From a virus (Duplodnaviria > Heunggongvirae > Uroviricota > Caudoviricetes): 29,443 bases of DNA. Below, piece after piece: positions 20,541 through 22,856 of this stretch (its first letter is position 1; every line of letters starts with the position of its first letter). The stretch lies in IMG/VR virus record IMGVR_UViG_2609459795_000003; one strand, given 5' to 3'. Made by a program: the position numbers and the translations under genes. The notes below the pieces were generated by a model. The model was not told the origin of the DNA, did no database searches, and saw only the letters and a list, made by a program, of their open reading frames with translations.

Positions 20541-20573
20541 ATAGAATTGATGTAATTATAACTAATTCATTAA

Positions 20574-21380
20574 CTATTTCTTAATGATGCTATTTAACAT
20601 TTCTAATGCAAAAAGCAACATGGAGCTAATAAAATACAATATAACCGCACTGGCAATCGCTCCAATTATAGCCTGGACACTCCAGTGAAAGTAATTTTTA
20701 CCATTAATAACAAACTTAACACTAGGAAACAAAAAGTCGATAAGCTTAATTATTAATGGAATAGCAAAGCTCCATAAGTTCGAAAACAAAATAAAGATAC
20801 AAATAAATGATAAAGCAAATGCACCATCGATTGATAGTTTTGGCGCCAGTTTTGAGGCTGTCCATAAGCTAAGCAAAAAGCCAACTGTCACACCTGAAAT
20901 CTGGATACTTAACATAGTCCAAGCTGTTCTAAAAAATCTAAATTTATTTTTGCACTTGTTAATTAAATCCTGAATCGTAATCCATAACGAGTCAACCCAC
21001 TCATTATCTTCCGATGCTACAATCATTGTGCTGCTATTTGAATTCCTCTCATCAATTCGTAGCTCCATCCAAGATCCATTCATCCTGTTAGACTGTCGAC
21101 TTTGATAAGTTTCAATAGTAAAAATTATTTGATCAATCCTAGTGGCCTGTCTAAAGTATTTCACAAGCTCACCGATAGAATCAACTTTATACCCCTTACC
21201 ATCGAACAAAATAAAAAAAACACATTGAGCACAAACTTCCCTACTTTCCTTTTGAGCTTGCTCATTCATTTTAACGCAGCGTTCGACAATTGCCGTGCTT
21301 AAGCTAATCAAGCTATCTTCATTTATAGAAACACCTGAAATATTCTTGCTTCTGTAAAAATATGACACTTTCGATTCCAC
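20574..21380 (-). CDS. AT-rich cargo protein: soluble N-terminal domain plus C-terminal 3-4 TM helices, unknown function
   Basis: 268-aa ORF, visibly AT-rich; hydrophobic segments in the last ~110 aa. Track start is GTG at 21380 with no convincing RBS, so the true start is uncertain. Confidence 0.55.
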   Translation of the reverse strand: MESKVSYFYRSKNISGVSINEDSLISLSTAIVERCVKMNEQAQKESREVCAQCVFFILFDGKGYKVDSIGELVKYFRQATRIDQIIFTIETYQSRQSNRMNGSWMELRIDERNSNSSTMIVASEDNEWVDSLWITIQDLINKCKNKFRFFRTAWTMLSIQISGVTVGFLLSLWTASKLAPKLSIDGAFALSFICIFILFSNLWSFAIPLIIKLIDFLFPSVKFVINGKNYFHWSVQAIIGAIASAVILYFISSMLLFALEMLNSIIKK

Positions 21381-21511
21381 TCCGCACCAGTCTCGATTTA
21401 GCGCAGGTTAACATAACCACTTCATTGGTAGAAGAAAAGAACTCTTCTTGTCAGAAAGCTACTGTGATATCCCTAAACCTGCAGATGATACAGAACAAAA
21501 TTTAAGCATCA

Positions 21512-21563
21512 ATTGTAGGCGATTTTAAATTCACTTTACAGTTTAGGCTGCCAATTGGCAGCC
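21512..21563 (-). promoter_or_regulatory. Perfect 18-bp palindrome GGCTGCCAATTGGCAGCC adjacent to a candidate promoter for the 268-aa gene
   Basis: Palindrome at 21546-21563; on the minus strand it is followed after 5 nt by TGTAAA (21535-21540), a 17-nt spacer and TACAAT (21512-21517). Confidence 0.4.
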
Positions 21564-21577
21564 GATTGAAGCAGAAA

Positions 21578-21847
21578 TCAATGAGTGCTCATCGATGAAT
21601 TTTTTTCAGCGCCAATCTCACTCAAAAAAGCAAAACCTTTTGACGTTATCTCATTAGCAATCAATCCACCTTCGGCAGATTTGCTTCGTATAACATCGAT
21701 AAAACCTATATCAGCAAGATCTGAAATAGCAAAGTTAACCTCTTTTGCTGAGAGATGAGGTAATGATGCAGCCTGAATTCTAGAATCCTTTGGCTGCAAT
21801 TCATTCACTCGACGTAGTATTTCAAGATGGATAGAGGTCAGTTTCAT
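21578..21847 (-). CDS. AT-rich cargo protein: small putative winged-helix/HTH protein
   Basis: 89-aa ORF with strong RBS (AGGAG, 6-nt spacing) and an upstream extended -10; alternating hydrophobic/charged pattern consistent with a small DNA-binding fold (inference). Confidence 0.5.
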   Translation of the reverse strand: MKLTSIHLEILRRVNELQPKDSRIQAASLPHLSAKEVNFAISDLADIGFIDVIRSKSAEGGLIANEITSKGFAFLSEIGAEKNSSMSTH

Positions 21848-21884
21848 AATGTTCTCCTGTTTTTAATGTTGTTTTACAGAAAAC

Positions 21885-21893
21885 ATTATAACA
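21885..21893 (-). promoter_or_regulatory. Extended -10 promoter element TGTTATAAT upstream of the 89-aa cargo gene
   Basis: Minus strand TGtTATAAT about 35 nt upstream of the 89-aa ATG; no good -35, as is common for extended -10 promoters. Confidence 0.45.
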
Positions 21894-21920
21894 CATTGAT
21901 TTTGATGTAGATTGAATAGA

Positions 21921-21953
21921 AAAAAACCATAAAAAAACCTCGCAATAGCGAGG
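21921..21953 (-). terminator. tR'-like Rho-independent terminator downstream of Q
   Basis: Minus strand: CCTCGC-TATT-GCGAGG hairpin followed by TTTTTTTATGGTTTTTTT, about 110 nt after the Q stop. Confidence 0.65.
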
Positions 21954-22061
21954 TCGTAAAAATTGTTCAACGATAGATACACAAGCCCCATCGTTGAGAA
22001 AATCTTATCCATATTTTTTGAGAAATACAAGTATTATGTCGTTATCTTCGGCGAAAATCGC

Positions 22062-22856
22062 TTATCTCGTCACCCTTCTCAATTGTGCTTCAGCGTAAGC
22101 TTCCTCCTGCCAGCACTTTGTAACCAGTTTATCAATGACATCTGCATATCCTTTGTACCACTGATAATCCGTCAGGTCTGGTACCAGCTTCTGGACATGA
22201 AGCCGCGCCAGTGTGGTTGGTAAACGGCTAAACCGGTTTCCACTGCAACGCCCACAAATCTTATAAACAGGCGTGCCATGAAGCCGGGTTCTTTTTTCAT
22301 CCAGGACAATACCTTTACCCTTACACCCTCTGCACGCGGTGCTGACTTCTCCCTTACCATGGCAATGCTGACATAGTTCCTTCACCCACTCTTCCTTGAT
22401 AACAGATTCCCCGCTTCTGGAGTGTTTCACCACTTCGCGCAATACATTATGAAATCCAGTACCAGCACAATGCTCACAGCGAGCCTTACTTGCCGCAGAC
22501 CTGGAATAATCAGCAAAGGCAAAATTCACAAGGTAAGGGATGATCTGTAACCGGGTTTCTTCACTCAATTTGTTCAATGTCGGGTTATCCAGTGCCATCG
22601 CGTAATTGAGCAGACCTTCAATCGCAAACTGAGGATCCTGAACACCAACTTTTGCCAGGAATAAGGCAAACCCAAGCGGTGCTTTCGACTGCACCATCCC
22701 CTGCGCAGCCATCACATCCGTAATCGTTAAACCACCTGAGCCTGTCGCCGGTGCGTCATCGCTCAATTTTGGAGATTTTGGGGAGTAATATTTTGGTAAG
22801 GCTTCAAGGTTCATGCTCGTTCTCCACTTACGCCAGCACGCCAATTGCCAGCGCAC
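22062..22856 (-). CDS. Late-gene antitermination protein Q
   Basis: 264-aa ORF (probable start at MNLEALPKYY, about 22814) with Cys/His zinc-binding motifs (CEHCAGTG ... CQHCHGKG ... CRGCKGKG ... CGRC), immediately upstream of a terminator and the lysis genes. Confidence 0.7.
   Translation of the reverse strand: MRWQLACWRKWRTSMNLEALPKYYSPKSPKLSDDAPATGSGGLTITDVMAAQGMVQSKAPLGFALFLAKVGVQDPQFAIEGLLNYAMALDNPTLNKLSEETRLQIIPYLVNFAFADYSRSAASKARCEHCAGTGFHNVLREVVKHSRSGESVIKEEWVKELCQHCHGKGEVSTACRGCKGKGIVLDEKRTRLHGTPVYKICGRCSGNRFSRLPTTLARLHVQKLVPDLTDYQWYKGYADVIDKLVTKCWQEEAYAEAQLRRVTR

Follow-up and report, generated by a model that had tools for sequence, protein, structure and literature searches.

A probable lambda-Q-type late-control cassette and the cargo slot behind it in a lambdoid Escherichia coli prophage

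The closest described system is the Q/pR'/qut/tR' unit of phage lambda, which yields the 6S RNA. Lambda Q is a member of PF03589, which stands for the Q-lambda family (PMC9388147). In lambda the transcript begins with AACGAT, a -10-like sequence that is re-bound by sigma-70, and the GGG at +7-9 is a discriminator-like element (PMC5001585). The polymerase pauses at +16/+17, and this pause is the loading site of Q (PMC5001585, PMC9388147). The qut site, or Q-binding element (QBE), lies partly between the -35 and -10 hexamers (PMC6266700, PMC9388147). An analogous product is StxS, a by-product RNA of a constitutive pR' that is ended at tR' in the lysogen (PMC7547250).

We analyzed a stretch of 29,443 nucleotides of viral DNA (IMG/VR record IMGVR_UViG_2609459795_000003), here called the window. 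It contains a PF03589 Q gene, and the order of Q, pR', pause element, terminator, and lysis genes is that of lambda. The features are listed in Table 1. The predicted short transcript of the window is about 67 nt, whereas that of lambda is 194 nt. The window also differs from lambda in that its holin gene is preceded by a second terminator and by cargo of about 1.4 kb.

The closest regions in other phages were those of SfV, mEp460, the Stx2c-converting phage, and the Stx1 phage Lys8385Vzw. Over the last part of Q, pR', and the pause element, their DNA is 92% identical to that of the window. Each has a terminator at the same position, and that of SfV is annotated as putative rho-independent. 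They differ from the window in the stem of the terminator and in the cargo, which consists of stx genes, a methylase, or small ORFs.

Lambdoid phages also carry morons, which are insertions of a promoter, a gene, and a terminator. The bor and lom genes of lambda and the morons of HK97 are examples. The cargo in the window resembles these in being a low-GC insert between conserved modules, in its presence/absence polymorphism, and in having its own predicted promoter block. It differs in that the hairpin downstream of its small gene has no T-run. The small gene also recurs in the slot between Q and holin more regularly than a random insert would. Taken together, we consider it very likely that the locus is a lambda-Q-type late-control cassette of a lambdoid E. 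coli prophage with a small moron behind it.

Table 1. Features of the Q-to-lysis region, in window coordinates and in order of transcription
Feature	Position	Strand	Details
Q antiterminator gene	22814-22062	minus	250 aa; PF03589, E = 4.8e-53
pR' -35-like hexamer, TTGTAT	22030-22025	minus	17 nt upstream of the -10, as in lambda
pR' spacer, TTCTCAAAAAATATGGA	22024-22008	minus	Inferred site of the Q-binding element
pR' -10 hexamer, TAAGAT	22007-22002	minus	6 nt before the pause element
Sigma-dependent pause element, AACGAT+GGGG	21995-21986	minus	Identical to AACGAT-GGG of lambda, at identical spacing
Predicted pR'-tR' RNA, about 67 nt	21995-21929	minus	5' stem, AU-rich linker, terminator
tR' hairpin, GACCTCGC-TATT-GCGAGGTT	21955-21936	minus	8 pairs, 5 of them G-C; loop of 4
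tR' U-tract, T7	21935-21929	minus	T-run invariant in alignments A1 and A2
Predicted promoter block, ATTCAATCTACATCAAAATCAATGTGTTATAAT	21917-21885	minus	33 nt; ends in the extended -10 TGTTATAAT (21893-21885)
Possible fold-back	21894-21879 with 21856-21841	minus	SD AGGAG at 21858-21854; AUG at 21847-21845
DUF2513-like small gene	21847-21578	minus	89 aa; first cargo unit; Pfam match below the cut-off; PHROG 32916
Hairpin without T-run, GGCTGCCAATTGGCAGCC	21563-21546	minus	Copy of the stem of the holin-leader terminator
Membrane-protein gene	21380-20574	minus	Second cargo unit; PHROG 30208; start uncertain, 21380 to 21269
Second intrinsic terminator, GGCTGCCAAATGGTGGCC + T6	20540-20517	minus	In the holin leader
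Lysis cassette	20465-19197	minus	Holin PF16931, 20465-20079; holin PF05449, 20092-19811; GH19 endolysin, 19811-19197

The Q gene and its late promoter

The true start of Q is the ATG at 22814, and its stop codon is at 22064-22062. A longer ORF of 264 aa from the GTG at 22856 is a mechanical extension. The PHROG 127 match begins at residue 15 of that longer ORF. The best match of the protein among solved structures is lambda Q (PDB 7ubm, E = 1.8e-37). It is 35% identical to lambda Q from end to end, N-terminal segment included (BLASTP E = 1e-41). Judged by its sequence, it is a member of the lambda-Q family. The genes that precede it on the minus strand are RusA, KilA-N, and DUF968.

Unlike lambda Q, the window protein has 48 additional residues inserted in its zinc-ribbon arm, and these bear extra CxxC motifs. 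In lambda this arm contacts the QBE, so the DNA site of the window Q need not resemble that of lambda. With the enlarged arm, the site may differ in length or sequence. In this part of Q (residues 116-233, window 22114-22469), a weak match to the DnaJ central domain, below the cut-off (E = 5.5e-07), falls within the arm.

The late promoter and pause element of the window read TTGTAT-17-TAAGAT-6-AACGAT-GGGG. The lambda elements read TTGACT-17-TAAATT-6-AACGAT-GGG. Both have a 17-nt promoter spacer, and AACGAT and GGG stand at the same distance from the -10. The 6 nt between the -10 and AACGAT (21995-21990) are TTTCTC in the window and TGACTC in lambda (L005, TTGACT-17 nt-TAAATT-TGACTC-AACGAT-GGG). 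The -35 of the window is weaker than that of lambda. The predicted transcription start is at about 21995. A consensus promoter scanner did not call pR', because its hexamers score only 7/12. The pR' assignment is made by homology with lambda and with the relatives of the window, not by motif strength. The spacer is nearly invariant in the alignment of the Q clade, and the Q-binding element may overlap it.

From GTDB genomes, IMG/VR, and phage records we surveyed about 100 loci with relatives of this Q, which are 36 to 100% identical to it. A segment of 300 nt was taken from behind the Q stop of each locus, and these segments gave 69 distinct variants. The geometry of -10, 6 nt, AAnGAT, and RGG was kept in 68 of the 69. 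The -35 was the clade consensus TTGCAT in 46/68 variants. The -10 was TAAGAT or TAGGAT in 52/68, always with 6 nt to the pause element. The sequence AACGAT itself was present in 56/68.

The terminator tR' and the short RNA

The first-pass annotation of this DNA had described a lambdoid unit in which Q is followed by a tR'-like terminator. It had placed a minus-strand terminator (CCTCGC-TATT-GCGAGG with two T-runs) about 110 nt past the Q stop and the late promoter within 21954-22061. These claims hold. The distance from the Q stop to the stem is 106 nt, Q is a PF03589 protein, and pR' and the pause element lie within that interval with the exact geometry of lambda. Behind the hairpin come two runs of T7, at 21935-21929 and 21924-21918, with ATGG between them. 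About 30 nt separate the GGGG of the pause element from the stem. The 3-kb region contained 9 terminator-like matches, compared with 2.8 expected, and tR' ranked first.

The position of the terminator is kept across the survey, and its stem is not. A hairpin with a T-run started at +29 to +47 in 64/68 variants, compared with 3.5% of dinucleotide shuffles. The terminator was tested by this shuffle control; in the MAFFT alignment the 3' arms were not in register, because the loops vary in length. There were 27 hairpin cores, among them CCTCGC/GCGAGG, CCTCGC/GCGGGG, CCCGC/GCGGG, ACTCGC/GCGAGT, and ACCGC/GCGGT. Pairing was kept and the sequence was changed. The sequences after the T-run fell into 26 unrelated clusters. 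One hairpin core precedes up to 3 unrelated clusters, and one cluster follows up to 4 hairpin variants. The T-run of tR' is therefore a module boundary.

An identical block of terminator and tRNA was found behind a Q of the PF06530/DUF1133 type (Sakai Sp10, L129 19566-19706) and behind a PF03589 Q (L020). Units of terminator plus downstream sequence are therefore exchanged between Q types.

The hairpin could instead be an upstream insulator of the cargo that came in with the small gene, the original tR' having been lost. The megablast similarity to other phages ends at 21967, which is 12 nt before the tR' stem, and the CCTCGC/GCGAGG stem was seen with this cargo only. Both observations fit such an origin. 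However, a terminator stands at the tR' position in nearly all variants irrespective of the sequence downstream. In addition, a second lineage that carries a homologue of the small gene (L130) has kept the 33-nt promoter block behind a different hairpin, with a linker that is only 42% identical, so that the gene unit starts at 21917. We regard the insulator as very unlikely and read the hairpin as tR'.

The RNA predicted to run from pR' to tR' (21995-21929) folds at -23.2 kcal/mol (z = -5.7), and 0/200 shuffles were as stable. It contains a 5' stem, AACGAUGGGGC.../...UCUAUCGUU. In this stem the pause element AACGAUGGG can pair with UCUAUCGUU about 20 nt downstream (window 21969-21995). Lambda has a shorter counterpart, AACGA/UCGUU (L005 787-812). 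The +5/+23 pair is A-U in the lineage of the window only. Across the clade, 88% of the cells of the stem AACGAUGGG/UCUAUCGUU were paired, no more than in shuffles, and double changes numbered only 2. The linker of the RNA is hypervariable among near-identical Q genes.

Two described RNAs were considered as identities of the short RNA and rejected. StxS goes with a 144-aa Q clade and is processed from a 258-nt precursor to 74 nt; no relation between its sequence and the RNA of the window could be detected. HnrS is a 66-nt prophage sRNA (PMC13502914), and the Q of Sakai Sp10 is a PF06530/DUF1133 protein, which sets that element apart from the one in the window.

The short RNA might nonetheless be a constitutive Hfq-type regulatory sRNA like StxS, with antitermination as a secondary matter. 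Its architecture would fit this role, since it has a 5' stem, a single-stranded AU-rich linker, and a U7 terminator, and it is far more stable than its shuffles. Precedent exists for pR'-derived sRNAs in Stx phages (PMC7547250), and the hypervariable linker could be read in the same way. Such variability would, however, be expected just as much if the linker were a spacer without constraint at a joint of recombination. The 5' stem is almost without covariation, and the precedent StxS comes from a different Q clade. An Rfam scan of 21500-22300 gave sub-threshold chance matches only and no family at the gathering score. The antitermination features of the cassette are fully explained without an sRNA role, and we hold that role to be quite improbable. 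The short RNA is best read as the terminated product of a lambda-type pR'.

The cargo slot and the lysis genes

The cargo has a GC content of 34 to 38%, compared with 48 to 58% in its flanks, which indicates that the region was acquired. It was present in 41/5426 complete E. coli genomes, always as the same near-clonal block. This lineage alone cannot separate the terminator from the promoter. By DNA and by protein, no match to the cargo was found in the phage database (50,697 phage records). Neither cargo protein had a match in PADLOC, NCBIfam, or PDB.

Q is truncated at about window position 22388 in several carriers of the block, namely L001 5916-6239 (APEC O78), L124, and L127. In these strains tR' should be permanently closed, and downstream expression should come from the cargo promoter or promoters alone.

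The first-pass annotation had also placed an extended -10 directly behind tR' and had proposed that it gives the cargo independent expression. The element is present at 21893-21885. The exact sequence TGNTATAAT occurs once in the 29.4-kb window, compared with 0.54 expected, and at least once in 47/100 shuffles, which is not significant window-wide. Within its own 81-nt spacer, an exact extended -10 appeared in 0.22% of shuffles (p = 0.0022). The block contains no recognizable -35.

The L130 lineage adds conservation to this consensus match. The 33-nt block (ATTCAATCTACRTCAAAATCAATGTGTTAYAAT) is 31/33 (94%) identical there to window 21917-21885, and the small gene that it precedes has a product 51% identical to that of the window. 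Elsewhere the two lineages are 59.5% identical in the coding sequence, 61% in the terminator, 42% in the linker, and 38% in the 5' UTR. The block ends in TGT-TATAAT in the window and in TGT-TACAAT in L130. In IMG/VR it was found only in front of this DUF2513-like gene family. In L130 the small gene follows a tR' of another sequence (GCCCGCC-ACCGA-GCGGG + T7), and its linker differs as well. Since the block is kept behind a different tR', the gene unit starts at 21917; the promoter block is part of the small-gene unit, and tR' is part of the Q module. The extended -10 thereby appears to be a conserved element that is more than a consensus match. It is the predicted promoter of the small gene.

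The block is conserved in two lineages only, so its conservation could also be that of an operator or of a joint left by recombination. As an operator it might bind a protein such as the winged-helix-like product itself, and the small gene would then be expressed under Q only. The lack of a -35 match is in keeping with this, as are short TCAAT/ATCAA repeats that can be read within the block and a conservation that extends about 27 nt upstream of the -10 hexamer, beyond the strict need of an extended -10. Against this stand the exact end of the block at TGT-TAYAAT and the leader of about 30 nt from there to AGGAG-AUG, which is a sensible distance. The only change in the hexamer is T to C at position 3, and the most critical positions, A2 and T6, are spared. 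The rarity of the extended -10 in local shuffles also argues for a promoter. The two roles are not mutually exclusive. We find a block without promoter function unlikely, and a promoter remains our preferred reading.

The first cargo gene encodes an 89-aa protein. It matches Pfam DUF2513 at E = 2.4e-4, which is below the cut-off. Among 5.8 billion proteins, its sequences all group in one tight cluster, and a sensitive search of 1.84 billion representatives returned only two true small relatives. Large matches in that search were artefacts of LRR and Cna_B repeats and were discarded. The 51%-identical relative (P0005, from L130) is again the first gene after a Q of the Q-lambda family, and a different holin family follows it. 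The other relative is 37% identical and lies directly upstream of a PF16931 holin. The small gene thus recurs in the slot between Q and holin in three phage backgrounds. An AlphaFold model of the protein, made without an alignment, had a pLDDT of 54 and was unusable.

The leader of the small gene may fold back on itself. The stretch between the extended -10 and the approximate start of the cargo transcript (21894-21879) is complementary to the SD/AUG region (21856-21841), so that this part of the promoter could double as an anti-Shine-Dalgarno arm. With the upstream arm included, as in a transcript that reads through from pR', the fold has -14 kcal/mol (z = -2.7) and buries both the SD and the AUG. 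A transcript that begins at 21878 has no upstream arm and is unstructured, at -5 kcal/mol. L130 has a GCCGC/GCGGC stem of the same topology that is no better than shuffles. Fold-back of this kind protects the IS10 transposase from outside transcription. The locus could accordingly be imagined as a lysogeny-only device, in which RNA from the small gene's own promoter is translated, read-through RNA is folded over SD and AUG, and the RNA of about 67 nt acts as an Hfq-type sRNA. We consider this device a doubtful, though conceivable, addition.

The small gene in the window has no T-run terminator of its own. The hairpin at 21563-21546 is a 19-nt direct repeat of the holin-leader terminator and is 84% identical to it. 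At the homologous position after the small gene, L130 has a hairpin with a T-rich tail. The functional stop of the small gene in the window is probably the predicted terminator at 20540-20517. The simplest reading of the origin is a unit of promoter, small gene, and terminator, with the membrane-protein unit inserted later at that terminator.

The membrane-protein gene is the second cargo unit. Its start is probably near 21380-21371 and not at 21269, because the sequence is conserved upstream of the PHROG-defined start. In APEC O78, RefSeq has only a 165-aa fragment of this protein. Homology between the window and L115 starts at 21417 and spans the membrane-protein gene (2853-3696 in L115) and the entire lysis cassette. 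L115 lacks the small gene; upstream it has a Q of the Q82 family (PF06323), a terminator of its own, and a methylase. This co-linearity without the small gene indicates that the membrane-protein gene travels with the lysis genes. The first-pass annotation had treated the cargo as one unit, and in this it must be corrected to two units.

Upstream of PF16931 holins, both the stem of the second terminator and the leader that follows it (ATTCC..CTGAGAGGA) are conserved. In Kosakonia L012 (3401-3424), which has no cargo, this terminator is 74 nt from the pR' start and abuts tR'. The distance is 1.3 to 1.45 kb in L013, L016, and the window. The slot for the cargo thus has a terminator on either side. 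The earlier proposal that tR' insulates the cargo from late transcription unless Q is active needs this second terminator before the holin, without which the insulation logic is incomplete.

A promoter-like site (TTAAGA-18-TATAAT, 10/12) lies at 20555-20584, at the 3' end of the membrane-protein gene and before the holin-leader terminator. Its -10 region resembles that of the cargo promoter in a 17-nt repeat that is 82% identical. The site is probably due to chance.

The lysis cassette would contain the first late genes under the predicted control of Q. It is followed by terminase, portal, and tail genes, and minus-strand ORFs continue through the rest of the window.

Proposed operation and meaning

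The analysis shows to which family Q belongs, how the elements read and are spaced, how far they are conserved, and where the modules end. By analogy with lambda, the cassette would operate as follows. The polymerase would start at pR' (about 21995) and pause after about 16 nt, where sigma-70 would re-bind AACGAT/GGGG. Without Q, transcription would terminate at the hairpin and U-tract (21955-21929), and an RNA of about 67 nt would be released. With Q bound in or near the promoter spacer, the polymerase would become resistant to termination. It would then pass tR', the cargo of about 1.4 kb, and the second terminator, and reach the holin, endolysin, and morphogenesis genes. The small gene may be expressed in the lysogen from its own extended -10 promoter (21917-21885). 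Transcripts that begin at the cargo promoter or come from the membrane-protein gene would end at the second terminator, short of the holin. We infer promoter activity, pausing, Q binding, read-through, and lysogenic expression from homology and conservation.

The cassette is a textbook lambda-type system. It adds nothing conceptually beyond the lambda paradigm, unless the fold-back or the sRNA idea is true. Because two terminators bracket the slot, a constitutively expressed insert may sit upstream of the holin without killing the lysogen. The joint right after the T-run of tR' is a preferred point of cargo exchange. The carriers with a truncated Q (APEC O78, L124, and L127) are natural Q-null controls. 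Members of this Q clade also drive the stx genes of Stx2c phages and of some Stx1 phages. For this prophage family, the switch that controls the lysis and virion genes can be annotated with single-base precision, with its promoter, pause site, terminator, and cargo slot.
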